Of a stretch of 64,000 nucleotides of DNA, positions 466 through 55,669 are shown in pieces. The stretch comes from an uncultured bacterium (GTDB lineage: Bacteria > Babelota > Babeliae > Babelales > Babelaceae). Below the pieces are notes generated by a model. That model did not search any database and had not been told where the DNA came from. It was given only the letters and a program-made list of their open reading frames with translations. Made by a program: the position numbers and the translations under genes. The stretch covers positions 153-64,152 of the forward strand of contig CAVXJI010000004.1 in the NCBI GenBank assembly GCA_963762095.1, read 5' to 3'. Position 1 is the first letter of the stretch. Each line of letters begins with the position of its first letter.

Positions 466-1032
466 TTAAATTTCATATATCGTGAAACGTTTATTGAACA
501 ATTCATCAAGGTCATTGGCGCTTTTAATAAGAGCAACTACCAGTAGTTTCGAACTCGGCCGCTCGCTTCTCATCTGGATTTGTAAAGATAGTGCGTGCCA
601 AAGGGGTTCGGAGTTAATCGTTCTGTTAAGCCTTTCAAAGTTATCAAAAATAAGCATAGTTTTTTTCTCGACGGAATTTGCTTGGGCAAATAAGGCATTT
701 ACCCTTTCCACTGCTTCCTTCTGGGTTAGACTTTGAAAATCACCAAGTGCTACATATGTAACATCAAGGCCAGACTCACGTGCAATTTCATAAGCCGCCC
801 TCCTATTAACATGACTCAAACCACCATGAAGCAGTATATTGGTTAAAGGCGCATCAGTCTCAATTTCTTTTTTAAGATTCGCCATAATGAGCTTAATCGC
901 GGGAGATTCCAGATTTCGATAAAAAGGCAGCGACGCTCTATCAACCGTTGACGCTTGATCCATGGCACTCAATGCAGAGCAAGCCCCCACTACAATAACC
1001 AGAGAAATTTGTTTAATAGTATGCAGTATCAT
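466..1032 (-). CDS. Secreted degenerate AAA+-like protein, paralog 1
   Basis: Track ORF 466..1074. The ATG at 1032 (MILHTIKQISLVIVVGACSALSAM) follows AAGGAAAAAC and is conserved in paralog 2. The core LTNILLHGGLSHVNRRAAYEIARESGL...MLIFDNFERL resembles an AAA+ P-loop and Walker B, but GPPGTGKT and DE are lost. Confidence 0.65.
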   Translation of the reverse strand: MILHTIKQISLVIVVGACSALSAMDQASTVDRASLPFYRNLESPAIKLIMANLKKEIETDAPLTNILLHGGLSHVNRRAAYEIARESGLDVTYVALGDFQSLTQKEAVERVNALFAQANSVEKKTMLIFDNFERLNRTINSEPLWHALSLQIQMRSERPSSKLLVVALIKSANDLDELFNKRFTIYEI

Positions 1033-1142
1033 GTTTTTCCTTATATAGCATATCTTGTTTAGGGCTAGACCCATCTTAATATTTTATAATAGAATATATC
1101 AGAATGGGGTTTCTGTCAAACCCTGCCATTTATTGACTTGAT

Positions 1143-1248: not shown

Positions 1249-1839
1249 TCAAACGAGCTTTTGTTTACCAACTTCACAACAAACAAAGCGTGACACAAAG
1301 CGCTCATCAAAGAATTTAACAGCGCCATTTGCAAGCGCAACAATAATGTATTTTTTGTCCTTGTGCCCTGTACTTACAAGGAAGTTGTTCAGTAAGCGCT
1401 TCTGAACATTGAAGACTTCACATTGCTCTCTTTGCGCAAAAAGTTCAACATTCTCAATAATAATCATACTCCTCGATGGAGCTTGAAATACATCATTAAT
1501 CAACCCCAAGGATTGCTGTTCTATTTGACCGGGCGCTCTCTGTAGACAATTTGGAGTAATTTTTACATGAAAAACATGAAGATGCAGCGCCTGCGCAAAT
1601 CGCTTAAATTTCCATATAATGTTTTGTAGGTCTTCAGACTCAAAACCATAGAGCAACATATTGGTTAATGGCAAATTCTGCTCAATCTCTTTTTTAAGAT
1701 TGGCTACCACGTCACGCAGGGAAGTTTCGTTTTTATTGCTTTGTACCCCTAATGAGGCTTCTTGTTGCATGGCGCTCAATGCAGAACAAGCCCCCACCGT
1801 AATGATCAGAGAAATTTGTTTAATCATATGCAATATCAT
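1249..1839 (-). CDS. Secreted degenerate AAA+-like protein, paralog 2
   Basis: Track ORF 1249..1854. The conserved start MILHMIKQISLIITVGACSALSAMQQ is at 1839. The core reads LTNMLLYGFESEDLQ...SMIIIENVELF, with Walker A and B degenerate. Confidence 0.65.
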   Translation of the reverse strand: MILHMIKQISLIITVGACSALSAMQQEASLGVQSNKNETSLRDVVANLKKEIEQNLPLTNMLLYGFESEDLQNIIWKFKRFAQALHLHVFHVKITPNCLQRAPGQIEQQSLGLINDVFQAPSRSMIIIENVELFAQREQCEVFNVQKRLLNNFLVSTGHKDKKYIIVALANGAVKFFDERFVSRFVCCEVGKQKLV

Positions 1840-1952
1840 GTTTTTCCTTAGCAATAATCACGCTTTCCTTATGCACCGCCCATCTTTTATATTTTGTAAT
1901 AGAATATATTAGAGCGAGCTTTTTGTCAAGTTCTGCCATTTTTTGATTGGAC

Positions 1953-3432: not shown

Positions 3433-3921
3433 ATGAATATTAAAAAAACTTTTCTAGTAAGTGCGATAAGCTTTTTGGGTGTATTTAGTAATATATCTGC
3501 GGCTCATAGGCTCATTGTTGATGTAAAAAATAACACTGGCAGTGATTATACGATTATCCCAACCAAGGGTGAAGCTGTCATACACGAAAAATCTTCTATC
3601 GTAAAAGCTGGTCAATCAAAAAGATTCGACCTCAATGAGTTAAGATGGTCCCCTGTAACAGGTGGTGAAAACGTGTCTTTATCTGTCAAAGATGATAAAA
3701 ACGAGAAGGTATTAAATGTCGAGATCCACAGAGTGTGGATTCCCACAACAAACTATGAAACTCTCTACGTTAGACTAAACAAAGGTGAAGGTCACTGGGA
3801 TTTTGATTCCTCAGCTGTTCGTGCTGATCGTCGAAAAGAAACAGATTTTTTAGTAAATCTCTATCTTAAAGGTGATACTCTTCAAGAAAGTGAAGCTGAC
3901 ATTACCGCTATTGAACGATAA
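3433..3921 (+). CDS. Secreted hypothetical protein
   Basis: 162 aa. AAAGGAG RBS upstream, and an N-terminal signal peptide (MNIKKTFLVSAISFLGVFSNISAA). No recognisable domain. Confidence 0.6.
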   Translation: MNIKKTFLVSAISFLGVFSNISAAHRLIVDVKNNTGSDYTIIPTKGEAVIHEKSSIVKAGQSKRFDLNELRWSPVTGGENVSLSVKDDKNEKVLNVEIHRVWIPTTNYETLYVRLNKGEGHWDFDSSAVRADRRKETDFLVNLYLKGDTLQESEADITAIER

Positions 3922-4153
3922 CTAGCGATTGAAAAAGAACTGATGCCCGATATAACATTAGTTCGATAAGTCGGTAATTTAAATCACAATGGGTCAAGCG
4001 CTCTGTTCAAATAGTGCTTGGCCCGTTTTAGCGACCCATTTGACCGTGGCAAAGAAACATCTCTCTACAAAAAATGAGTCATTTCTGATCTTGTTCCTAC
4101 CATAAATACTGCTATACTGTTGGGATAATTTCAAAATTTCGAAAGGCATTTCT

Positions 4154-4723
4154 ATGATGAAACAAATTACTCTTTTTAGTTCACTTATCATTGCAGCATG
4201 CCTTGTCTTTGCAACAGCACAAACCACGCAACAAAAAAAGAACACTAACCGAGAAACTTCCATGAATTATTCAATCGTCTCAAAACCCGCATTTGATGTT
4301 GTTGGCATTCAAATTAAAACTGATAATAGCAGAGGCGCTGCCGGATTCGCGCCCTTATGGCAAAGATTCTATGCAGAAAATATCCAGCAGCAAATTCCTC
4401 ACAAAATCGACGATGATGTAATTGCTGTCTACAGCGAGTACGAAGGTGATCACACTAAACCTTTTAGCTATTTCATTGGGTGCCGCGTCAGCAAAGTAGA
4501 CACATTGCCCGCATCTTTAATTGCCAAGCACATCCCAGCTGCACGGTACGCGTTATTTACCGCAAAAGGCGAAATGCCTCAGGCTGTTGGCACAACCTGG
4601 ATAGAAGGCATTTGGAAAAGCGATCTAAAAAGAGCTTGGAAGGCTGATTTCGAGGTCTATGGAGCTCGCTTCTTTGCTCGCGAAGGAAAAGACAAGGAAG
4701 TGGATATTTTTATTGGGATTTAA
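4154..4723 (+). CDS. GyrI-like / AraC effector-binding-domain small-molecule-binding protein with N-terminal leader
   Basis: 189 aa. FDVVGIQIKTDN...APLWQRFYAE...VIAVYSEYEGDHTKPFSYFIGCRV...FEVYG matches the GyrI-like fold pattern. Confidence 0.65.
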   Translation: MMKQITLFSSLIIAACLVFATAQTTQQKKNTNRETSMNYSIVSKPAFDVVGIQIKTDNSRGAAGFAPLWQRFYAENIQQQIPHKIDDDVIAVYSEYEGDHTKPFSYFIGCRVSKVDTLPASLIAKHIPAARYALFTAKGEMPQAVGTTWIEGIWKSDLKRAWKADFEVYGARFFAREGKDKEVDIFIGI

Positions 4724-4815
4724 GATCCCCTCGACGACGATATTTCAAGAGATAGGTTTTCATTGACTTATAGATTGTGATAACTTACGGAATTGCGTCG
4801 ATTGTGATGGTATAT

Positions 4816-5391
4816 TCAGCCAAGTCGGCCTCTCATGATCGATGCAAGTTCTTCGATTGCCACCGCTAAATCTTCGTTAACTATAACATGGTGATAGAAG
4901 CCATTTTGCTCTTCACTTTCCATCTCTTTCTCTGCCAACGCAAGACGGTAGGCAATTGTTTCTTCACTATCCTGCGCTCGAGTAGCCAGCCGAACCTGAA
5001 GGCTCTCTCTGGTTGGTGGTTTTATCCAGATAAGTACCACATCAGGCTTATGGGCCTTGAGCGCTTCCGCCCCTGCTCTATCTAAAACAGCGATATAATG
5101 CATCCCCTTCTCTACCTCAGCAACTACAGAATGCGGAAATCCGTAATAGGCGCCGTATGCCGTGCTATACTCAATAAAAAAGCCTTGTCCAATCTTCTCT
5201 TTAAACTCAGATTCCGTAATGAAATGATAATCTATTCCCTGAGTCTCACTCGATCGGGGCTTTTTAGTGGTATACGTTATAGCACGATTCACTTGATAAG
5301 TATCTCGCAGATGCTCGATAACCCGGTGAACAAGCGTAGTCTTGCCCGCTCCAGAAGGAGCTGAAATGACAAATAATTTTCCTTTATTCAT
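4816..5391 (-). CDS. gmk: Guanylate kinase
   Basis: 191 aa. P-loop VISAPSGAGKTTLV, then TTKKPRSSETQGIDYHF and the family's typical length. Confidence 0.9.
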   Translation of the reverse strand: MNKGKLFVISAPSGAGKTTLVHRVIEHLRDTYQVNRAITYTTKKPRSSETQGIDYHFITESEFKEKIGQGFFIEYSTAYGAYYGFPHSVVAEVEKGMHYIAVLDRAGAEALKAHKPDVVLIWIKPPTRESLQVRLATRAQDSEETIAYRLALAEKEMESEEQNGFYHHVIVNEDLAVAIEELASIMRGRLG

Positions 5392-5995
5392 ACACGACTT
5401 CCTATTCTTATTATGATATTATTTAGTATATCACATTTTTCAGATATGAATCTTAAACTGCGCCGGTTCATGCTGGTTCATGGCATGGTTGCACCTGTCT
5501 TTTCCTCAATTTTGTCTCAAAGAGACAGGGCCATCGGAAACTTAGGCCAGCTCTTCCCCAAAAAAAGTCGGCCGACTCAGGGGTATATTATTGCATTCAT
5601 TGATTTTTATAAGAATTTATACAACAATGACCCAAAGGTAATATTTTTTCTGACCTTTTAGGTCATCATAAAATGAGCACAATAGAATATGCTTTTTTTG
5701 TGTGGTGTTGCAAAGCAACACAATTTACCGAGCATGGGCTTATTTAAATAGGTACCGTCCAAAAGCGGATATTTTCGCAGAATTTATATATGCCCAGCCA
5801 AAACTATTGCAATTTGAGTAGAGGTTTAGTTACAATTAATCTATAATGACCTCGAAAAACTATTACATTTGACTTTCAGGGTTTTGCAAAACTCGACAAA
5901 GAGCAATTTTTCTTAATCTATATAAAGATTAGCCTGATACCTAAAGGTGGATAAGTAAATAAACTATTAACAAAGATAAAGAAAGGAAAAAACAA

Positions 5996-6550
5996 ATGAA
6001 AACTAAATTATGTGCAACCCTTGTCCTTTTAACAGGAATAAATGTTTTGCAGGCTATGGAGTCATCAAAAGTAGCATCCGCTCAAAAAGAAAAATCAACT
6101 GAACTGCAGGCACAGCGGTTATTGCAAGAATTCGCAGGTGAGTATAGGAAACTACTTGATGAATATCCAACAGGCGAACGTAATATTGTCGGCCCACTTG
6201 GCGATTGGTCAAAGAAGGTCGATAATCTATCTAAAACTTATTTGGAAAAATTGAAAGATATTGATCCAAAAGCAGCAGAGAACATTACAAAACTTGCTTC
6301 CCCATGGTCATGGCGTGCTAAGGCTACTCCAGAGGAGCGAAGTAAGGGTCTCCTTGAGTATTTGAAGTTGTATCAAGTTCAGTGGAAGGATTTTCATAAA
6401 CAGGAATTTGTAAATGAGAATTCTAAAGAGTATTTCAGAAATAACTTAATTCGCAGGCTTGCTGACCTGACCGGTCTTAAAATAGCTGAAGATCTCTCAA
6501 AGATGACTGACGAACAGCTTAAACAGCTTGCTGACTCATTTCTGGCTTAA
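5996..6550 (+). CDS. Secreted hypothetical protein
   Basis: 184 aa. RBS GAAAGGAAAA, and a leader ending LQAMESS. Confidence 0.6.
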   Translation: MKTKLCATLVLLTGINVLQAMESSKVASAQKEKSTELQAQRLLQEFAGEYRKLLDEYPTGERNIVGPLGDWSKKVDNLSKTYLEKLKDIDPKAAENITKLASPWSWRAKATPEERSKGLLEYLKLYQVQWKDFHKQEFVNENSKEYFRNNLIRRLADLTGLKIAEDLSKMTDEQLKQLADSFLA

Positions 6551-6557
6551 AATAGTT

Positions 6558-6586
6558 GCCAGCAGCCCGACTAACAGGCTGCTGGC
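6558..6586 (+). terminator. Stem-loop after the 5996..6550 gene
   Basis: Perfect 10-bp stem gccagcagcc / ggctgctggc with a 9-nt loop. There is no clear T-tract. Confidence 0.4.
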
Positions 6587-6788
6587 ATCATAAGCTCTCT
6601 TTAATCAAGCCAATCTTTATTGTTCGGTATCTTTCCGTAAGCCAAATCAAGCTATCCTATCCATATTTCAAAACGTTTCTATCGAGGCAGCCATTTTCAT
6701 AGCCCCTCATAATGAATTTCAAACCCTTTATTTGTCATTTTCAGATAGAATATAATAATAGAGGGGCAGGTAGATTCTAGGGGGAATT

Positions 6789-7127
6789 ATGGTAATATTA
6801 AGAATAGCTCGCACACTCAGCTTAGTACTTTTGCTTACTCATGGAGCCATGAGCATGCCTGTCTGTGCCGATTATAAAATATACGAAGCAATCTTGCTCG
6901 ATTGTGCGCATAAAGTACAAGACATAAAAAACAAGCTTGCTCAATTGGATCATCTTATTTCAAAAGCCAGTTTTCATCCCTTTGCAAGCAGAGAGCCTCT
7001 CCAAGACCGTATACATCTTGAGAAAGAATTGCGAACGGCATTAGAAGCCTTGGCAAAAGCCAAAGCACGTGTAGAACAATGCGGCACTCAAAAAAGCACC
7101 GCCAAGAAGGAGTCTCATGCCTCCTAA
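6789..7127 (+). CDS. Secreted coiled-coil hypothetical protein
   Basis: 112 aa. GGGGGAA RBS, a hydrophobic leader and a helical, charged body. Confidence 0.5.
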   Translation: MVILRIARTLSLVLLLTHGAMSMPVCADYKIYEAILLDCAHKVQDIKNKLAQLDHLISKASFHPFASREPLQDRIHLEKELRTALEALAKAKARVEQCGTQKSTAKKESHAS

Positions 7128-7905
7128 AGATCCCGTCATACACAATATTATCTGGGACCTCAGTGGCACTCTGTTTCGACCAACAAGCTGGGGGCTTTCC
7201 GAGCAGCAGATAGCTGATTTATCTCTTGTTTTTTACATGTGGTCGGGAAAAAACAAGCTTTCCAAGCTCGATGCATACGCTTTACAGCTCCTCAATCTTG
7301 CTGAAGAACCTCTTCCCGACTATCAAGTAATTAGACTCCATACCGGAGATCCTGTTCCTGCCGTTGTTTGTTCACTTCTTGCGGGCTTAATAGACTCACA
7401 GGAGGCTTATCGTAAAGTTATGATAGCCGCCGAAAAAGCAGGTCATGATTCTCTGTCACCCGAAGAGCTCATACAAGTGTATCGGATGCTTAAAGCATTC
7501 TTTGATCCTTCCTCTTTAACTCTGTGTATGCAACCCATAGAAGAACATGAAAAGCTTGTTGCGCGGTGCTCTAAAAACCCGGATAACACTCTTTTTGTCC
7601 TTTCCAATTGGGACCGAGAATCATTTGATCAATTCTTTAAAACGCGCAGCGCCTACAATGGCCTTAACCATTTCAAGCGAGAAAATATTATGATCTCAGC
7701 CGATGTTGGTTACATTAAACCCCAGCCCGAGATTTTTGAATCTTTTCTTTCAAAATACAGCCTCGATCCAAGAAGCTGTTTTTTTATTGATGACCAAGAG
7801 GAAAATATTGCCGGTGCGCAGACGTTTGGCATCAGAGGAATGCAGTGTAAAGTAAATAATGGCAACAAACTTTTGCATACCCTTGAAGATTTGCATATCA
7901 TCTAA
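7117..7905 (+). CDS. HAD-superfamily hydrolase-like protein
   Basis: 262 aa. Motif I variant IIWDLSGTLF (DxS instead of DxD), motif II VLSNWD, motif III IKPQPEIF, motif IV FFIDDQEENI. The start overlaps the upstream gene by 11 nt and has an AGGAG RBS. Confidence 0.7.
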   Translation: MPPKDPVIHNIIWDLSGTLFRPTSWGLSEQQIADLSLVFYMWSGKNKLSKLDAYALQLLNLAEEPLPDYQVIRLHTGDPVPAVVCSLLAGLIDSQEAYRKVMIAAEKAGHDSLSPEELIQVYRMLKAFFDPSSLTLCMQPIEEHEKLVARCSKNPDNTLFVLSNWDRESFDQFFKTRSAYNGLNHFKRENIMISADVGYIKPQPEIFESFLSKYSLDPRSCFFIDDQEENIAGAQTFGIRGMQCKVNNGNKLLHTLEDLHII

Positions 7906-7988
7906 CACAGATATTCTTGACTTATAAATTTACTATTTGCAATAATTATAATTGTAGATAGAATTCATGTTCAACTAAAAGGAATCCT

Positions 7989-8549
7989 ATGAAAAGAATC
8001 GTATCATTAACCTTGCTCCTCTGTGCCGGTCAATCACTTTTAGCTACAATTGTTGATGCGGGATTAGATGTATTTAAAGAAACCCAAGTGTATGGCAAAA
8101 ATTCTCCTATCGGTCTTGAAATCATCAATAAAAATAAAGCGCCCTTCTGGTTTGCTCTGAAGAATGGCCCCGATATCTATTCAAGGCTCGGCAAAACTGC
8201 ATTCAAACTCGAGGGAGAAAAATTTCTGCAGAGAAGTGAAGCTCGATATAATTTAGATATCGACGAGCCAACTTTTATAGCAGTATGGAATAACGACCCG
8301 GGAAAGGTTGAATTTAAAAAAACAGCAGTCTTCGGTTTAATGGGTGCGAAGGCATTTTTTCCTCAACCAGATGAATTGTATACGTTTACAGAAGGGAAAA
8401 CTATCTATCTAACTAGAACGCCTAAAGGTGACTTCAAACCCGAAACAGGGCCTCTTAAAGGATTACTGGGCACAACTGATTCCAAGCTTAGTTTGAAAAA
8501 TAATGTCCAAGAAAAAGACATAAAAAAGCTACCAGTAAGCCCTAAATAA
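7989..8549 (+). CDS. Secreted hypothetical protein
   Basis: 186 aa. AAAGGAA RBS and signal peptide MKRIVSLTLLLCAGQSLLA. Confidence 0.6.
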   Translation: MKRIVSLTLLLCAGQSLLATIVDAGLDVFKETQVYGKNSPIGLEIINKNKAPFWFALKNGPDIYSRLGKTAFKLEGEKFLQRSEARYNLDIDEPTFIAVWNNDPGKVEFKKTAVFGLMGAKAFFPQPDELYTFTEGKTIYLTRTPKGDFKPETGPLKGLLGTTDSKLSLKNNVQEKDIKKLPVSPK

Positions 8550-8619
8550 AAAATATATCCTCGTGCGGAGATCGTTATAGAGAAAATCTTAGTTAACAAT
8601 AATAAAAAGGAGAACTAGT

Positions 8620-8853
8620 ATGAAGAAATTGTCTCTACTTTTAACAAGTATAACAATCCTATCTGTAGCCGGCCTGTCAGCCATGCAAACAAGTGAAGCT
8701 GAATGGCACAGACAAATGATGGAAAGCAAAGAAGCTGCAAAAAGAAAAGCCGAACGAGAAGAAGCTGAAAGAAAAGAATCAGCGGCTCGCCAGAAAGCCT
8801 TTTATGAAAAGGCGCAAAAGGATTATGAAAAAACAGGCGCCGTACAATGGTAA
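8620..8853 (+). CDS. Small secreted charged (E/K/A-rich) protein
   Basis: 77 aa. AAAGGAGAA RBS and a leader ending GLSAMQTSE. Confidence 0.5.
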   Translation: MKKLSLLLTSITILSVAGLSAMQTSEAEWHRQMMESKEAAKRKAEREEAERKESAARQKAFYEKAQKDYEKTGAVQW

Positions 8854-8866
8854 AATAGTAATAGAA

Positions 8867-8897
8867 AGAGCTTGCAGGTAGTTCATTTGCAAGCTCT
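8867..8897. terminator. Bidirectional stem-loop between convergent genes
   Basis: agagcttgca / tgcaagctct forms a 10-bp stem between the 8853 (+) and 8930 (-) gene ends. Confidence 0.5.
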
Positions 8898-8929
8898 CTC
8901 ATATCCTGTCAAAATTACTCATCGGCTCT

Positions 8930-10663
8930 TCAAGATGCCGAAAAAATTGATCGGTATTTTTCTGCACATGCAAGATGAAGATAAATTTGATCATCAAGTT
9001 TATCTATTTCTCTATTAACAGCATCCGTTACGCTAACCCGACCCCAGTTTTCATCATTCTTAATTCTTTCGAGTACTTCTTGAGTCAAAGAGGGAAGCTG
9101 CCCCAACCGACCGCTAAACGGTTGCCACCCAAAGGCTACTAATAGCTTGCCAAGCTTTTCTGCCAGATCGTGCCCATAGGCTGGCGAGCTTTTCAGCAAA
9201 TCTATTACTGGTTTATATTTTTCTAGATGAATCATATATTTTTGCTTGCATTCCTCCAGCAATTTTTTGGCAACAGTACATGCACTTTCACTTTTAAGAA
9301 CCAAATAGTTAATGCCATCTCCCGATTGAATTAATCTCAACGCCTCTCTGACTTGGTTCTTTGAAGCAGCAGTCATAAGAGGTGTCCAATCATTCTGTCT
9401 CTCACAATCAGCATGCTCACGCATCAATAAACCCAACAAAAGTACTTGGTCTACAGCATCATCATAAGCTTGCCGAGCAATATCCATCGCTGTCCCCGCT
9501 CCGGACTCCTCTCTGACATCGCCGCCTGCCTTCATTAGGCACGCAACCATCTCAAAATCGCCCCTTTGTGCAGCTTGCATGAGCGGTGTCCATCCAGCAG
9601 AAGTACGAGCGTTCGGATCGGCTTGTGCGCGCAAGAGTTTTGTCAATATGATGGGTCGATTCCAACACGCCGCCACCAGAAGAGGCGGAAGTATATCCAA
9701 ATATGCCCCGCGGCTATCTTGAGGACTCACAAAAATCGGTTTAACAATTCCCTGAATACGCTGCAAATGAGGATCGGTTGAAATATAATAATTAGGTTCA
9801 GCCCCGCAATTTAGTAAGGTATCCACTTCTTCTTGAGAATCTTCATATACGGCTGTTACCAAGCGGCTATTAATATATTTTTTAAATAGAAGTCCTTTAA
9901 GTGCTAGCAAGTCATCGCTAAGCAGGGTGGAGCAAACAAGCGCCTCCAAGTAACTACGCTGGCGGATCGCCTTGGTATAACGCTCGGATATATATTCATG
10001 TACAGCCGTCTTGCTCTTATTCTCCAAGATTTTTGGGGTATTGAGATCAGGCCGCGTTAATGAGGGAAGCCTTTGTGGAAGTAGAGTATTTAATAGTCCC
10101 GTCACAATCATCAATTCTTTTTGATCACCTTTGTCCTGAGTATCAAACAGTCGGGAAGCTAAGTGAAGCAAACATAACCTTTCTTTTTTTAGCACCTCTA
10201 TTGCCAAGTCAGTATCTCTTGTTACTACCGTCGCCTTTTGCCGGGCATCTTTAATAGCTATAAGCATATATCGGGCACTTTCTTGCTCCAATATATCGTG
10301 GCCCCTTTTAGCAATCTGCCACCTTTTTTGAAAATATTCTTCGACGGTCATTTGTGTATCAGCATCGAAAAGTATCGGTTTATGCAGCTGCAAATCATGC
10401 ATTACCACATCAGCTTGGGGAGCTGAATGACGCGCAAGCATCAACTTTAACTGATCTGCTCGTCTAGCCTGTTTGTCCTGATCCAAATAAAAGTCGGACA
10501 TCGCTTGCACAGATAATTTAGAATCAATATCCTGTTGCTCGCGCGTCCATGTATGACGATCCGTAACGGCTGTTGCACGTTTTATCCGCGGTGGTGCTTC
10601 CATAGCGAAACATTGAAGGCCTTGAAAAAGTAAAAAAATCCCCGGAACTAAAGCTTGTATCAT
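8930..10663 (-). CDS. Secreted ankyrin-repeat protein
   Basis: 577 aa. Leader ends QCFAMEAP. ANK units include GWTPLMQAAQRGDFEMVACLMKAGGDV and NDWTPLMTAASKNQVREALRLIQSGDGIN. Confidence 0.8.
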   Translation of the reverse strand: MIQALVPGIFLLFQGLQCFAMEAPPRIKRATAVTDRHTWTREQQDIDSKLSVQAMSDFYLDQDKQARRADQLKLMLARHSAPQADVVMHDLQLHKPILFDADTQMTVEEYFQKRWQIAKRGHDILEQESARYMLIAIKDARQKATVVTRDTDLAIEVLKKERLCLLHLASRLFDTQDKGDQKELMIVTGLLNTLLPQRLPSLTRPDLNTPKILENKSKTAVHEYISERYTKAIRQRSYLEALVCSTLLSDDLLALKGLLFKKYINSRLVTAVYEDSQEEVDTLLNCGAEPNYYISTDPHLQRIQGIVKPIFVSPQDSRGAYLDILPPLLVAACWNRPIILTKLLRAQADPNARTSAGWTPLMQAAQRGDFEMVACLMKAGGDVREESGAGTAMDIARQAYDDAVDQVLLLGLLMREHADCERQNDWTPLMTAASKNQVREALRLIQSGDGINYLVLKSESACTVAKKLLEECKQKYMIHLEKYKPVIDLLKSSPAYGHDLAEKLGKLLVAFGWQPFSGRLGQLPSLTQEVLERIKNDENWGRVSVTDAVNREIDKLDDQIYLHLACAEKYRSIFSAS

Positions 10664-32456: not shown

Positions 32457-33008
32457 TTATAAAATACATGAACCGCGCGTCTTGAAGTACTTGTAATAGC
32501 TTTGAAAAAAGTGCTTGCCACTTACGGTCAATTTCTCTCGAATTACAATACTCTGTAGCCGTTTTTCGATCCACTCCTGCAGATAGCCTTTTTTTTCATA
32601 GAGCTCCCGTGCCCTTTGGATTCCAAGCTCAGGATTTTCAATTTCATCAAGACGCTCTTTGCCCAACTTAGCCAACCAGCGTTTGAAAGGTTCGGCTTTA
32701 GGCCAGGGAATTGACTGTATAATACGAAATATGCCTTCTATATTGGCACAGTCTGTTTCATATTTTTTACCATCAGCAGCTTCTAATTTCAGTCCGTGAC
32801 AAAATGTCACGACCTCACTTCCTTCTTCACCCAACCTTTGTTTAAGCTTTCTCCAGTATGCACCTGCATCGCTACTTTCGGTAAGCGCCGCGCATACGTC
32901 AGTAACAGAAAACCACCATTCATTTTCGAAAAAAATTCTTCGTATCTCTTTGCCCTGAAAAATCGATATTTGCGCTAACTCTTTGTTGAAGTGTGTTGTT
33001 TTTATCAT
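32457..33008 (-). CDS. BRO-N / KilA-N-like DNA-binding protein (phage antirepressor-like), probably C-terminally truncated
   Basis: 183 aa. IFQGKEIRRIFFENEWWFSVTDVCAALT...YWRKLKQRL...IFRIIQSIPWPKAEPFKRWLAKLG is the BRO-N pattern. The tail after IREKLT loses similarity to it. Confidence 0.6.
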   Translation of the reverse strand: MIKTTHFNKELAQISIFQGKEIRRIFFENEWWFSVTDVCAALTESSDAGAYWRKLKQRLGEEGSEVVTFCHGLKLEAADGKKYETDCANIEGIFRIIQSIPWPKAEPFKRWLAKLGKERLDEIENPELGIQRARELYEKKGYLQEWIEKRLQSIVIREKLTVSGKHFFQSYYKYFKTRGSCIL

Positions 33009-46865: not shown

Positions 46866-48308
46866 TTAGATTACTTTAACAGCCCGCAATTCGAGAGCTT
46901 TTTTCAATTTTTTCATACTCGACTCGCTCAATGCACTATACTTAAATCCAATCTCCTCAATGTAAGGCATCGCGAGAAACACCTCCGGGTCTATATCAGT
47001 ATGAGGATACCCGGATATCATCATGCGTTTTACAGAAAGGCCCGCAAATGCTCCGGCATTTAAAGGTGCCGCATCATAACCAAAGTAAAGGTGTAATTTT
47101 CTTAGTGGATTATAAGGGGTATTTCCTACCAACCCATTAAAGGCACCCGGCTCTATGGATTCTATATATTCACCTATATAAATGTCCTTTACTCTTAATC
47201 CAATAAAGGCTGCCGAAGAAATATGTCTTAAGTTATTTGAGGTTAGCTCTAATTCGTCGATGCTCAAGCCACTAAAGGCCCTATCCTCAATTTCAAGTAC
47301 GGCTCTAGGACCAGAATAATAAGAAGGATAATCACCAGGCTTTGGATTCTGCGTTAATATGAACTTTGTTAATTGTCTGCCTTCAAAATCGATAAATGTG
47401 TTAGCTTTTATTCGTTTTACATAATTACGAGAAAAATCTATTTCCTTTAAATCTTTAAAAATAAGTAAAGGACGTAATATTTCAGCAGAAATGGTATCAA
47501 AGGCATTGTTATTAATACACACTGAATAAACCGAACCAAAATACGAGCTTTTATTTGTTAAAACTGATTTAATCGTCTCTAAACCTTCCAAATTATTAAG
47601 CTGAAGGCCTCTGAGATTCAATATCACTCTCTCTCTGCCCCGCTCTATTCTTTCTTCAAAAATCTCAGGAGTACAATCAAGACAATCTTTTATTGAAAGT
47701 CCCCATAAGGAAGCCATATCCAGTGGGCACATGGCTGACCTTGCCTCTGGAGACGCAATCAGAATAAAATAGCGAGAAACTTGCTTTAGAAAACGGTCAA
47801 CATTGAATTTTGAGAATTCTCTTGATAACTGTTCTTTTAGCTCATTATATTTTTTTTGCTGTTGATTCCTACCCTCAAGCAAATTTTTTATAACACATAA
47901 ATATGCAAAGTCCAAAATGGGATCAGAGCCTAAATAGTTTGCAAATCTTAGGAACTGATAAGGGTCCGATATCTTTACTTCTTGTAAAAGTGCATCTGAA
48001 AGAGCCTTGCCTTTACTGTCCTTATGATAAAATAAGGACCATGAAAGAGTAGCCAATTCACTAATAAGCTTTGAAGACCAATCAAGAGGAATTGGTGCTT
48101 CCCACCCCAGGTCTTCTATCAAATTCTTAATTGTTTCAGATGTTATAGCAATTTCTCGAGACACTTCGTACTTATCCCCTTCATCATTGCCGATAAGAGT
48201 AATTACATTACCGCTAAATGGTTCTGTTGCTTTTTCAGCAGCTTTCTCACACGCTTGCAGGCTGCAGGTCATAAAGATGGTGGCAAGCAAGATAAGGCGG
48301 ATGGTCAT
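46866..48308 (-). CDS. Secreted/lipoprotein-like Skp1-like (POZ) domain fused to BspA-type leucine-rich repeats
   Basis: 480 aa. Leader is MTIRLILLATIFMTCSLQAC. ITLIGNDEGDKYEVSREIAITSETIKNLIEDLGWEAPIPLDW...YHKD...FANYLGSDPILD parallels SKP1. The C-terminal half has LRR_5-like units (IEDRAFSGLSIDELELTSNNLRHISSAAFIGL...). Confidence 0.65.
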   Translation of the reverse strand: MTIRLILLATIFMTCSLQACEKAAEKATEPFSGNVITLIGNDEGDKYEVSREIAITSETIKNLIEDLGWEAPIPLDWSSKLISELATLSWSLFYHKDSKGKALSDALLQEVKISDPYQFLRFANYLGSDPILDFAYLCVIKNLLEGRNQQQKKYNELKEQLSREFSKFNVDRFLKQVSRYFILIASPEARSAMCPLDMASLWGLSIKDCLDCTPEIFEERIERGRERVILNLRGLQLNNLEGLETIKSVLTNKSSYFGSVYSVCINNNAFDTISAEILRPLLIFKDLKEIDFSRNYVKRIKANTFIDFEGRQLTKFILTQNPKPGDYPSYYSGPRAVLEIEDRAFSGLSIDELELTSNNLRHISSAAFIGLRVKDIYIGEYIESIEPGAFNGLVGNTPYNPLRKLHLYFGYDAAPLNAGAFAGLSVKRMMISGYPHTDIDPEVFLAMPYIEEIGFKYSALSESSMKKLKKALELRAVKVI

Positions 48309-52794: not shown

Positions 52795-54483
52795 ATGGTT
52801 AGCAAAAAAGCTCTTATTCTATCCCTCTTTCTATCGATGCCCATTTACGCAATGGAAAAATTGGATAGACGCGAAACAGTGGCGAGTTTAAAAGACCTTT
52901 GCATCAAAAAGGTGCTTAGTTTAACGCAAGATTTCCCACTTACTAGTTTAAATTCAGAATTTGTCGACCATCTTATTCCGCATATAAAGGCTGACTTTCG
53001 ATTCCGACTTGTTGGACTTCTCCCTGGCGCAAGCCTTAAAGTCTTCTCCGATTATTTTGCCTGGCATCCTGACGGAAATTCATTGCAAACAAGCGGAGAA
53101 TCGGACCTCAGGCTTACAAAATTTTCGGGCCACACTGCGAGTAGCGAAGATGTAACAATTCATCATGATGATTATGGGAATATCACCGCCGGAGCATGGA
53201 GCCCGGACGGCCAATGTGCTCTCACGTCTTCAGCGGAGAACCTCAGATTGTGGGATTGCAGTACCAAGAGCTCAATCGAAATTTTTCGTTACGATGGCGA
53301 TTTTTCTGATGGCGCCCTTGAGATTAAATGGAATGCTGCAGGTACACATGCCTTTATTATACCATTTATCGGCCCCTTCCTTCTCTTTGATCTAACAAAT
53401 AAACAAGCTCCTACCCATACAGAGCATGAAGATGGCGACGAACCGGGTGCGGAAGATGAAAACCAGGGCTCTCTTAAGGCAGCCTGGAATCCCATTGAGG
53501 ACTATATCCTCTCAGCCTATGAATATCAAAATGCACTCAAGCTTTGGGATATGCGAGATAAGAAACATTGCACCTTTATAAAACTCGAGGGCCATACTGA
53601 GGCTATCAATCAATTTGCTTGGTGCCCCGATGGCTCTTGTGCTCTTTCTGCATCCAAGGATAAGACTCTCAGATTGTGGGCTTTACCAGAGAAAGAAAAT
53701 TGCCATGCAATTAAGCACGCGAAAAAAGATTATCCTTCGCTTATACTTGAAGGACACACAGACGCAGTAACGTGTGTTTCATGGAGTAATGCGAACTACG
53801 CTCTTTCTGGTTCTGCGGATACAACGCTCAGGCTCTGGGATTTACATGATAGGGAAAATGGCCGGTCAATAAGACTGGATGGACATGCCAGGCCGATTAC
53901 CGCCGTTGACTGCAGCCCTGATGGCACCTGCGCTGTTTCTGGCGACACCGAGGGTTCTGTAAGATTCTGGGACCTAAGAAATAAGCAAAAAATTACTTCC
54001 GCCATCCTGCTCAACCATACAGGCACACCGATTAAAGCTATAAGTTGGAATGCAACAAGTTCCAGGGTCCTTATAAGCTATGGAGACTGTTTCAAAATAT
54101 TTCATATCGACGCGTGCCGGGAGGATTCGTCGCAGGACATACTTATGCTCAACACTACCATTTCCACCCTCTGCACAGAGTTTAAATCGGTACTTGCTTC
54201 ATTACCCAATCAAGATGAAAAATATATTTCTGAATTGAGAAAGCTCTTTTTCACTTTCTATGTTACCGGAAAAAAAGCGACCTCTGGTACTTACAACAAG
54301 ACAGACGAAAAAATGTTGGCTGCTGGTTTGAGAACTCTAGGTACCTTCGTGCATCGCGTTGAAGGGGCAGGCAAGGGACTCCCTCTACCATTCAGAGCTC
54401 TCACATTGAGCTTGTATCACATTGTATGGGAAAAGGTGACAGAAACTTCGATGGCTTGCAAACAAATCGCGAAGCAATCCTAA
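52795..54483 (+). CDS. Secreted WD40-repeat protein with an N-terminal SOCS/BC-box-like motif
   Basis: 562 aa. Leader ends IYAMEKL. WD units include LEGHTEAINQFAWCPDGSCALSASKDKTLRLWAL, LEGHTDAVTCVSWS...SGSADTTLRLWDL and LDGHARPITAVDCSPDGTCAVSGDTEGSVRFWDL. The N-terminal region reads SLKDLCIKKVLSLTQDFPLTSL. Confidence 0.85.
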   Translation: MVSKKALILSLFLSMPIYAMEKLDRRETVASLKDLCIKKVLSLTQDFPLTSLNSEFVDHLIPHIKADFRFRLVGLLPGASLKVFSDYFAWHPDGNSLQTSGESDLRLTKFSGHTASSEDVTIHHDDYGNITAGAWSPDGQCALTSSAENLRLWDCSTKSSIEIFRYDGDFSDGALEIKWNAAGTHAFIIPFIGPFLLFDLTNKQAPTHTEHEDGDEPGAEDENQGSLKAAWNPIEDYILSAYEYQNALKLWDMRDKKHCTFIKLEGHTEAINQFAWCPDGSCALSASKDKTLRLWALPEKENCHAIKHAKKDYPSLILEGHTDAVTCVSWSNANYALSGSADTTLRLWDLHDRENGRSIRLDGHARPITAVDCSPDGTCAVSGDTEGSVRFWDLRNKQKITSAILLNHTGTPIKAISWNATSSRVLISYGDCFKIFHIDACREDSSQDILMLNTTISTLCTEFKSVLASLPNQDEKYISELRKLFFTFYVTGKKATSGTYNKTDEKMLAAGLRTLGTFVHRVEGAGKGLPLPFRALTLSLYHIVWEKVTETSMACKQIAKQS

Positions 54484-54847
54484 AGTTTGCCGAACGATTT
54501 TTCTAACTCTATTTTAACTCGGACACATTTTGGCATCCGAGCACGACTGTGTTAAAGCCTGAGTAATGATTAGGACCATTAGGTGGGGGAATCGAATAAT
54601 ATAAAAGATTTTTTTCGCTTCTAGAACAATAAGCGGATAAGTTCATTGCTTACAAATCATATTCAAGAAGCTGGCTCTCCAACGCGAAAAAAATAAAAGA
54701 TCTCGTATTGCTCATAAGAATCTGACAAGTATTCGTTGTACTATACATTCACCAATCAAGCCTCTTTGACTAAAAAATTTTTAAATTGTATTATAAACGC
54801 AATAGTACGTCTCCCGATTCATTTTGTTTTATAAAAGGATTTTCGAT

Positions 54848-55669
54848 ATGATCACGCTAGCCAAAAAATTCATTCCCGTTTTATTCACGTTTTTTCTCGC
54901 AATCAATTATGCTGAGCACATTGCTTGCATGGATCTACCGGCTAGTGCGGAAAGACCGGCAACAGAGAATATAGCAACCAGCGCGGAACAACCGGCAACA
55001 TTAGACGAATGCTCTATCTGTCGTGAACAATTGCCCTCGAGCATAGCAGCTGCAAGCGCTATCTTAACGCTTAATTGCAAACACCAAACCCATAAAGTAT
55101 GCAGTGAAAAATATTACAGAGGTCAAATTTTGGAGAAGGAAAATGTCGCGCTTCTCTGCACGCTATGTAGACACCCGCTTGACTCGGAAGACCTTCAAAA
55201 GCTCGATCAAGCAATCTCATTAGAGGATACGCTCACTTTTTTAAAAGCGCGCGTTGCTCCCTTGCTCATGAATGAACAAAATATGTATGTGTTTGAAGAA
55301 GCTTTCAGCGCACTATCGCGCGTTCAGCAGCTTAATCCTACGCTTAAACATCAATTAGAGCTCTTAAGATTACATTTCATGCTTTTTGCTCGCCACGAAA
55401 TCAATCGCAACATGGCAGCTGCAGCACCAGGGGGCGGCCTTCAACTAGACAGCATCCTCAATCTCAGTCCCGAAAGATTGAATGCATTGCAAGAACCCAT
55501 GACCAGGCTACTACAAAACGTTGCCAGAGGAACAGTAAGGGAGATATCCTATCAAATAAGCGATAGAATATACAATCATCGCAGAATGATTCTAGCAATA
55601 TCATTAGCCTTCTATGTGCACTATTATTTGCTTCCTATTATAATAGGTAAGTTTTTTAGTTCACATTAG
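54848..55669 (+). CDS. RING-H2 finger protein with N-terminal leader and C-terminal TM anchor
   Basis: The track ORF starts at a TTG (54824). The ATG at 54848 follows AAGGA. CSICREQL-x-LNCKHQTHKVC-x-CTLCRHP fits C-x2-C...C-x-H-x2-H-x2-C...C-x2-C. The C-terminal TM is MILAISLAFYVHYYLLPIIIGKFF. Confidence 0.75.
   Translation: MITLAKKFIPVLFTFFLAINYAEHIACMDLPASAERPATENIATSAEQPATLDECSICREQLPSSIAAASAILTLNCKHQTHKVCSEKYYRGQILEKENVALLCTLCRHPLDSEDLQKLDQAISLEDTLTFLKARVAPLLMNEQNMYVFEEAFSALSRVQQLNPTLKHQLELLRLHFMLFARHEINRNMAAAAPGGGLQLDSILNLSPERLNALQEPMTRLLQNVARGTVREISYQISDRIYNHRRMILAISLAFYVHYYLLPIIIGKFFSSH

Follow-up and report, generated by a model that had tools for sequence, protein, structure and literature searches.

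An orphan-flanked WD40 protein with a predicted export leader and a BC-box-like motif from a Dependentiae bacterium

Our analysis of a 64,000-nucleotide stretch of DNA (contig CAVXJI010000004.1 of assembly GCA_963762095.1; hereafter the window) from an uncultured member of the Dependentiae centres on a gene at 52795..54483 of the forward strand that codes for a WD40 beta-propeller protein. We read this protein, with a probability of about one half, as an exported host-interaction protein whose propeller lies between two regions of orphan sequence. Its leader would be cleaved after the residues IYA and the protein would exit the bacterium, its propeller then serving as a protein-binding platform that acts on host proteins. 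A helix-loop-helix at the mature N-terminus (amino acids (aa) 25-71) and a four-helix C-terminal domain would flank this platform, neither of them with a detectable relative. Bacteria of the phylum Dependentiae (TM6) are obligately intracellular in protists, as parasites or symbionts, and host ubiquitination is known to be hijacked by intracellular bacteria through copies of F-box, U-box, RING and BTB modules. The original prediction for this gene had placed a SOCS-box-like BC box at the N-terminus of the protein. We keep that match as an unproven lead and do not treat it as a mechanism, because only the minimal motif supports it and a match as good as this one would turn up by chance once or twice per genome.

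Architecture of the WD40 protein

The complete open reading frame (ORF) codes for 562 aa, with the following features (confidence of AlphaFold2 models as predicted local distance difference test, pLDDT):

52795..54483 (+): WD40 ORF, coding in this order for a leader, a helix-loop-helix, a seven-bladed WD40 propeller and a C-terminal helical domain
52795..52851 (+): predicted Sec-type signal peptide, aa 1-19 (MVSKKALILSLFLSMPIYA), from sequence, hydropathy, the AlphaFold2 helix at 4-23 and the upstream AAGG
52879..52923 (+): predicted helix 1, aa 29-43 (VASLKDLCIKKVLSL), bearing the BC-box-like motif (AlphaFold2 pLDDT ~55-67)
52885..52914 (+): SLKDLCIKKV, aa 31-40, exact match to the BC-box consensus [STPA]LxxxCxxx[AILV]
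52933..52944 (+): FPLT, aa 47-50, candidate Cul box in a loop, outside the hhalign alignment
52954..53007 (+): predicted helix 2, aa 54-71, of low confidence (AlphaFold2 pLDDT ~50; ends at 71/74)
53020..53169 (+): aa 76-125, AlphaFold2 pLDDT <50, with the WD-like stretch FAWHPDGNSLQTSGESDLRLTKFSGH
53170..54114 (+): WD40 beta-propeller, aa 126-440 (PF00400, AlphaFold2, Foldseek)
53392..53472 (+): acidic insertion loop of blade 2, aa 200-226 (LTNKQAPTHTEHEDGDEPGAEDENQGS), from AlphaFold2 and sequence
53545..53556 (+): WDMR, aa 251-254, a WDxR motif, from sequence
53968..53979 (+): WDLR, aa 392-395, another WDxR motif, set in a DWD-box-like context (AVSGDTEGSVRFWDLR), from sequence
54127..54477 (+): C-terminal domain of four long predicted helices, aa 445-561 (AlphaFold2 pLDDT 60-77)
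54379..54390 (+): LPLP, aa 529-532, a Cul5-box look-alike between the last two C-terminal helices, preceded by GLRTLGTFV

Gene calls on three public assemblies, one of them ENA ERZ25039544 (contig_3835, 549,634 bp), give the same start and an identical protein. A Shine-Dalgarno-like AAGG lies 7-10 nt 5' of the ATG of this ORF and the internal Met20 has no such site. A promoter and terminator scan was uninformative. The leader, which we assigned by eye and by hydropathy rather than with SignalP, runs from two lysines through a 13-residue hydrophobic core to I-Y-A, the putative cleavage site. The description of the gene product as a WD40 protein with a leader, already given in the original prediction, is borne out by this Sec-shaped N-terminus and by the match of PF00400 (E 1e-30), found in four stretches over aa ~126-470.

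In a full-length AlphaFold2 model (24-sequence WD40 alignment, mean pLDDT 72.7), most of the propeller (130-437) reaches a pLDDT of 85-97. The whole model retrieved only generic seven-bladed propellers with Foldseek (LIS1, COPB2, G-beta; E 2e-19), at TM 0.77-0.83 when normalised to target length. The stretch 62-126 was modelled poorly, and the FAWHPDGNSLQTSGESDLRLTKFSGH segment within it probably supplies strands that close the propeller.

On both sides of the propeller the protein resembles nothing that we could find. Pfam has no match in its first ~120 or last ~120 residues, even at E<=10, nor did searches of PDB and Pfam with either flank return anything; phmmer and BLASTP found no paralogue of the N- or C-terminal flank within the window, and for the C-terminal domain (aa 445-561) in particular Pfam, PDB and the window gave no match. 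A full-length search of 5.8e9 proteins yielded no orthologue: only the protein itself exceeded 42% identity, the other matches being generic WD40 proteins at 25-42% identity, and the nearest of these relatives come from bacterial metagenomes. The N-terminal region had no match in a word-index search, and the N-terminal 55 residues had no homologue among 1.84 billion representative proteins. An exhaustive phmmer search of the same 1.84e9 representatives with aa 21-125 returned the protein itself and five weak matches, all He_PIG/Ig-repeat or WD40 proteins aligned at the FAWHPDG strand, which we rejected as spurious.

A variable island of eukaryote-like genes

The surroundings of the gene are conserved in a related metagenome-assembled genome (MAG), 'Candidatus Dependentiae' OFTM184 (L004). 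The SPFH gene 3 kb upstream of the WD40 gene has a counterpart of 66% identity there and one of 56% in a Babeliales MAG, and the window's RpoD is 68% identical to that of L004. The gene order is also kept in L004, with dnaG-rpoD-corC and, farther along, SPFH-NfeD, the island, alpha/beta-hydrolase-like genes and Tkt. Between NfeD and the hydrolase genes lies a slot that contains tandem ankyrin genes in L004 and an ankyrin-GNAT-WD40-RING series in the window. Because its content differs in L004 despite the conserved flanks, the island around the WD40 gene, made up of eukaryote-like genes, is a variable one.

The L004 slot itself (3540..9461) holds four to five tandem ankyrin paralogues, in which the leader is followed by F(A)ELPxE(l/i)..I, which is F-box-like, and later by VNK.F. 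When these N-termini (alignment A4) are set against the F-box profile, the resulting alignment looks sensible but is not significant (P 0.043), and Pfam makes no call; we do not retain an F-box in these proteins.

Host dependence and genomes with WD40 and F-box proteins along with leucine-rich-repeat and ankyrin proteins have been described for TM6/Dependentiae (PMC4776705), and in Chromulinavorax signal peptides were found on 44% of coding sequences, putative effectors included (PMC6561590). Among the amoeba-associated Chlamydiae, the Parachlamydiaceae have expanded F-box, BTB and RING/U-box families (PMC4209131). In the window, leader-like hydrophobic N-termini occur not only on the WD40 protein but also on ankyrin, ankyrin plus RING-like, RING-H2-like, Skp1-like plus leucine-rich-repeat, and PLA2_B-type proteins, and these leader-bearing repeat proteins fit the published TM6/Dependentiae descriptions. 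The WD40 protein follows the pattern of eukaryote-like exported Dependentiae proteins in its genome of origin, its Sec-type leader (recognised by inspection, export being predicted), its repeat domain and its variable slot. It shares with the repeat proteins of TM6/Dependentiae and of amoeba-associated Chlamydiae the eukaryote-like repeats and the signal peptide seen on putative effectors (Chromulinavorax), but differs from them in having neither orthologue nor paralogue and in that both its flanks are orphan.

A minimal BC-box match in the N-terminal helix

The string on which the original prediction rested (SLKDLCIKKVLSLTQDFPLTSLNSEFVDHL, aa 31-60) opens with SLKDLCIKKV (aa 31-40), which indeed fits the Elongin-BC box consensus [STPA]-L-x3-C-x3-[AILV] exactly and which does precede the propeller in a protein of bacterial, Dependentiae, origin. 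The consensus of 10 residues is by itself exactly at chance level and carries no information, because 2.2 occurrences are expected per window (0.07 per 562-aa protein) from the window's own amino-acid composition and two were observed among its ORFs that reach 150 aa or more, the second of them in a membrane protein. Chance occurrence, which the original prediction had named as a real possibility, is therefore just that for the bare motif.

With an ungapped BC-box matrix (15 columns, from 14 SOCS boxes) the site scores 14.3-14.9 bits, whereas genuine SOCS boxes reach 28-40 bits with the same matrix. The exact per-position p of this score (3-4e-6), in agreement with the hhalign P given below, corresponds to an E of 0.002 for this protein, 0.06-0.08 for the window and 1.3-1.9 for a genome of 450,000 aa. 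The match loses its significance at genome scale, and the site was chosen post hoc. A scan with the matrix, which covered the window and two related Dependentiae loci, found no second motif-bearing protein.

For comparison with whole SOCS boxes we used an alignment of 14 of them (A2), validated against PDB, from which its profile retrieves only SOCS-box proteins (SOCS1-4, ASB7/8/9, SPSB3, PCMTD1). When aa 20-84 were compared with this profile by hhalign, a probability of 41% (P 2.7e-4) was obtained over 16 columns, which are those of the BC box only. Among the three docking modules that we tested in this protein (BC box, F-box and the H-box of DDB2), the BC box alone gave a nominal profile match. 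The HMMER profile of A2 gives the site -2.7 bits, at rank 644 of 1011 background hits; neither SOCS_box (PF07525) nor F-box (PF00646 / PF12937) was matched in the WD40 protein by Pfam, even at E<=10, and Foldseek found no match with the isolated N-terminal model. Thus, of the profile comparison proposed with the original prediction, the BC-box part gave a partial signal, and neither a Cul box nor an F-box (probability 0.2%) emerged.

Both AlphaFold2 runs make the motif helical. In the full-length model, helix 29-43 is followed by a loop (44-53) that includes FPLT and has a short turn at 49-51, and then by helix 54-71/74; aa 21-80 modelled alone gave the same helix-loop-helix (mean pLDDT 57.8). 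Set against the three-helix SOCS fold, this arrangement has a pLDDT of only 50-67. The helices that were to be looked for in residues 20-90 are hence predicted, at low confidence, and they do not establish a SOCS- or F-box-like fold.

The Cul-box half of the original prediction did not survive. Its Pro-containing segment was said to lie at the spacing of the Cul box, but the distance from the BC-box Leu to the Pro of FPLT is 16 residues, against 19-24 in the 14 reference boxes (a range read by inspection of A2, an automatic count having mis-assigned two of the 14), so that even the tightest reference box has a spacing 3 residues longer, and hhalign leaves FPLT unaligned. No Cul5 box (LPxP ... 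L..YL) occurs 19-24 residues past the BC-box Leu of the WD40 protein, and the motif is N-terminal to the putative substrate-binding domain, not C-terminal to it as in SOCS-box proteins. A C-terminal SOCS box of the WSB type (GLRTLG...LPLP, aa 508-532) was considered and rejected as well: hhalign aligned only the 7 columns around LPLP, at a probability of 1%, and AlphaFold2 puts LPLP between two long helices. The protein failed every available test of SOCS-box membership, and what is left of the N-terminal SOCS-box-like BC box is a BC-box consensus in a predicted helix; judged by sequence, the site matches a minimal BC box well and a SOCS box not at all. On this evidence a BC-box motif cannot be told apart from a chance match, and conservation cannot test it because there are no homologues.

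Other possible ligase-docking modules

A helix-loop-helix of ~45 aa directly before a seven-bladed WD40 propeller is the layout of FBXW and DCAF receptors, and the predicted helical module of our protein (aa 25-71) stands in this FBXW-type position in the AlphaFold2 model. It might accordingly dock to another cullin-RING adaptor, either as a degenerate F-box that would bind Skp1 (that of the host or the Skp1-like product of 46866..48308, encoded 4.5 kb away) or as an H-box of the DDB2 type that, together with the WDxR motifs, would bind DDB1-CUL4.

For the F-box, the comparison was made with an alignment of 11 F-boxes (A3), likewise validated against PDB, where its profile retrieves only F-box proteins (53 chains, Legionella AnkB, 5k35, among them). 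Against this profile aa 20-84 gave the hhalign probability of 0.2% mentioned above, and the N-terminal module has neither the LP nor the conserved Trp that mark F-boxes. In L004, the ankyrin genes of the corresponding slot begin, past the leader, with the F-box-like LPxE(l/i)..I, but the WD40 N-terminus has no similarity to their N-termini.

The relation to the H-box of DDB2, first suggested by visual likeness, was rejected and is kept solely as an architectural analogy: with a DDB2 fragment 100% identical to residues 68-142 of PDB 9j8w_L, 78% of shuffles reach the score observed for the WD40 N-terminus and the DDB2 helix-loop-helix, and BLASTP against the fragment aligned only the AWHP strand, with E 0.088. 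The propeller does have two WDxR motifs (WDMR 251-254 and WDLR 392-395), a motif type that DDB1-binding WD40 proteins also have, but such motifs are common in WD40 proteins and only weakly diagnostic.

Neighbouring genes

Two neighbours of the WD40 gene give the island its ubiquitin theme:

46866..48308 (-): Skp1-like plus leucine-rich-repeat protein, 480 aa, with a lipoprotein-like leader (...CSLQAC), a Skp1-like domain and leucine-rich repeats
54824..55669 (+): RING-H2-like protein, 281-aa ORF with hydrophobic N- and C-termini and the Cys/His pattern C-x2-C-x18-C-x-H-x2-H-x2-C-x18-C-x2-C

The first of these, 4.5 kb from the WD40 gene, matches Pfam Skp1_POZ (E 4.9e-7) and LRR_8, and in PDB (phmmer) its N-terminal half finds Dictyostelium Skp1a (E 2.8e-8) and human SKP1 (E 1.4e-7) over Skp1 residues 8-131, but Elongin C at E 0.52 only. 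The original prediction had described a Skp1/Elongin-C-like protein about 4.5 kb away, and its distance and likeness to Skp1 are confirmed, whereas the likeness to Elongin C is not. Because its sequence matches Skp1 and not Elongin C, this neighbour would be expected to pair with an F-box rather than a BC box. An F-box in its own linker was sought and was not significant, and a homologue search with its Skp1-like half gave no match at E<=0.001. The fusion of a Skp1-like domain to a repeat of the substrate-binding type in a bacterium may be of interest in its own right, and the protein might bind host Cul1 or F-box proteins.

The RING-H2-like protein stays just under the gathering score with two Pfam families, zf-C3HC4 (E 4e-4) as well as zf-RING_2 (E 8e-4), and in the public annotation of the contig its gene call is, at 199 aa, shorter than the 281-aa ORF. 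A second E3-like candidate is encoded at 24820..25803 (+); it has a leader, ankyrin repeats and, at the C-terminus, a RING-H2-like finger that zf-RING_2 matches at E 2e-4, short of the gathering score.

Several other genes of the window deserve mention. In the ankyrin protein at 57302..58198 (+), a leader and a repeat rich in alanine and glutamine are accompanied by a C-terminal ERLPIELHHYV at the position of a poxvirus-type PRANC/F-box; an F-box there (LPIELHHYV) reached a hhalign probability of 0.3%, which is not significant. The 637-aa product of 22468..24381 (-) combines a PLA2_B lysophospholipase catalytic domain (PF01735 E 4e-20) with a hydrophobic segment at its N-terminus. Two adjacent paralogues of ~200 aa, at 466..1074 (-) and 1249..1854 (-), have near-identical leaders (NMILH.IKQISL...GACSALSAM); AAA ATPase matches part of the first (E 6e-6), and the pair looks like a small duplicated exported family. 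An exported 247-aa protein at 18775..19518 (+) has an internally duplicated, alanine-rich, coiled-coil-like segment (AKIAELKAAIAQNEAAIAQN..., twice). The window further codes for a Schlafen AlbA_2 + HATPase_c_4 + HTH protein (20374..21744, -) and a Bro-N domain protein (32457..33008, -).

Discussion

Several observations weigh against the interpretation of the WD40 protein as simply an exported host-interaction protein. A ligase role gains in prior probability from the ubiquitin-themed island, with its Skp1-like plus leucine-rich-repeat and RING-H2-like proteins; the BC-box site ranks 4th by matrix among the 1.13 million positions in the ORFs of the window and of 80 unrelated bacterial loci, and it is positioned exactly where a docking module would be expected. 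A signal peptide and a propeller would equally suit a periplasmic protein, and the lack of homologues makes conservation unusable for or against any reading.

Of the alternatives, the one that fares best takes the BC box as real, and we consider it unlikely. After export, helix 29-43 would insert L32, C36 and V40 into host Elongin C, and the Elongin BC-Cullin2/5-Rbx ligase would be recruited to whatever target the propeller binds, making the protein a bacterial analogue of WSB1 and of viral BC-box hijackers with its box at the N-terminus. The exact consensus, the match to a PDB-validated SOCS-box profile, the high matrix rank, the small E for this protein alone and the helix predicted in both models speak for it, as does the location of the motif at the mature N-terminus, beside a domain of the substrate-binding type and in an island with RING-H2-like and Skp1-like genes. 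Against it stand an alignment confined to 16 columns, the short Pro spacing, a score of 14-15 bits where genuine boxes have 28-40, the negative HMMER, Pfam and Foldseek results, the one to two equal matches per genome expected by chance and the lack of a second motif-bearing protein in the loci scanned. In addition, our literature searches turned up no bacterial effector described as having a BC box or SOCS box, and Elongin-C-binding BC-box mimicry is known only from viruses.

Comparison with known systems illustrates how far the resemblance goes. With the eukaryotic WSB1 and WSB2, WD40 plus SOCS-box substrate receptors of Cul5, the protein shares the propeller and the BC-box consensus sequence; their box is C-terminal whereas this one is N-terminal, and here no LPxP Cul5 box lies at the spacing of the family, the BC box alone aligns (16 columns, 41%) with 14-15 instead of 28-40 bits, and Pfam sees no SOCS_box. 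If the motif were real, the nearest functional analogues would be the viral proteins that hijack ligases with a minimal BC box, HIV-1 Vif (SLQxLA) and adenovirus E4orf6, which are likewise non-eukaryotic and likewise have only a short BC-box helix and no canonical SOCS box. These viral proteins have no WD40 propeller, and their boxes are proven by binding and structure, whereas that of the WD40 protein is known only as a sequence motif.

A docking helix for another cullin-RING adaptor is doubtful too, and ranks behind the BC box. The FBXW proteins (beta-TrCP, Fbw7/Cdc4) resemble our protein in having a helical module of ~40-50 aa N-terminal to a WD40 propeller, and Legionella AnkB (PDB 5k35), a bacterial F-box effector, in being the product of an intracellular bacterium that mimics a ligase receptor; the WD40 protein differs from both in lacking an F-box profile match (0.2%) and the LP or Trp signature. 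With DCAF receptors such as DDB2 it has in common a helix-loop-helix before a seven-bladed WD40 propeller and WDxR motifs, but the sequence similarity of the helix-loop-helix to that of DDB2 is not beyond chance. The Skp1-like gene nearby and the F-box-like starts of the L004 ankyrin genes count in favour of this alternative, and the F-box profile comparison counts against it.

Least probable of all is a propeller that serves the bacterium itself in its periplasm or envelope, with the N- and C-terminal helices packed as a structural cap: a Sec-type leader alone would take the protein only across the inner membrane to the periplasm, exported beta-propellers such as BamB and TolB exist, both termini appear from the AlphaFold2 strand count to leave the propeller side by side, so that the helical regions could form one domain, and the closest WD40 relatives are bacterial (25-42% identity), with no sign of recent eukaryotic acquisition; but the absence of the gene from the L004 slot and of any orthologue among 5.8e9 proteins is unusual for a housekeeping envelope protein, the neighbours are eukaryote-like genes, and canonical GH-WD repeats are atypical of known periplasmic propellers.

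The exported host-interaction protein thus remains the reading that we prefer, and its firm core is a WD40 protein with orphan flanks and predicted export, encoded by a Dependentiae genome in a variable island with a ubiquitin theme. If the BC box were real, the protein would be the first from a bacterium known to connect a substrate-binding WD40 propeller with the Elongin BC-Cullin2/5 ligase of the host, and the origin of its box, in a protist-parasitic member of the Dependentiae, would be independent of the metazoan SOCS box. Binding of the helix to Elongin C would add a new ligase family to those hijacked by bacteria and would imply that a helix of 10-15 residues can evolve from scratch for ligase docking.

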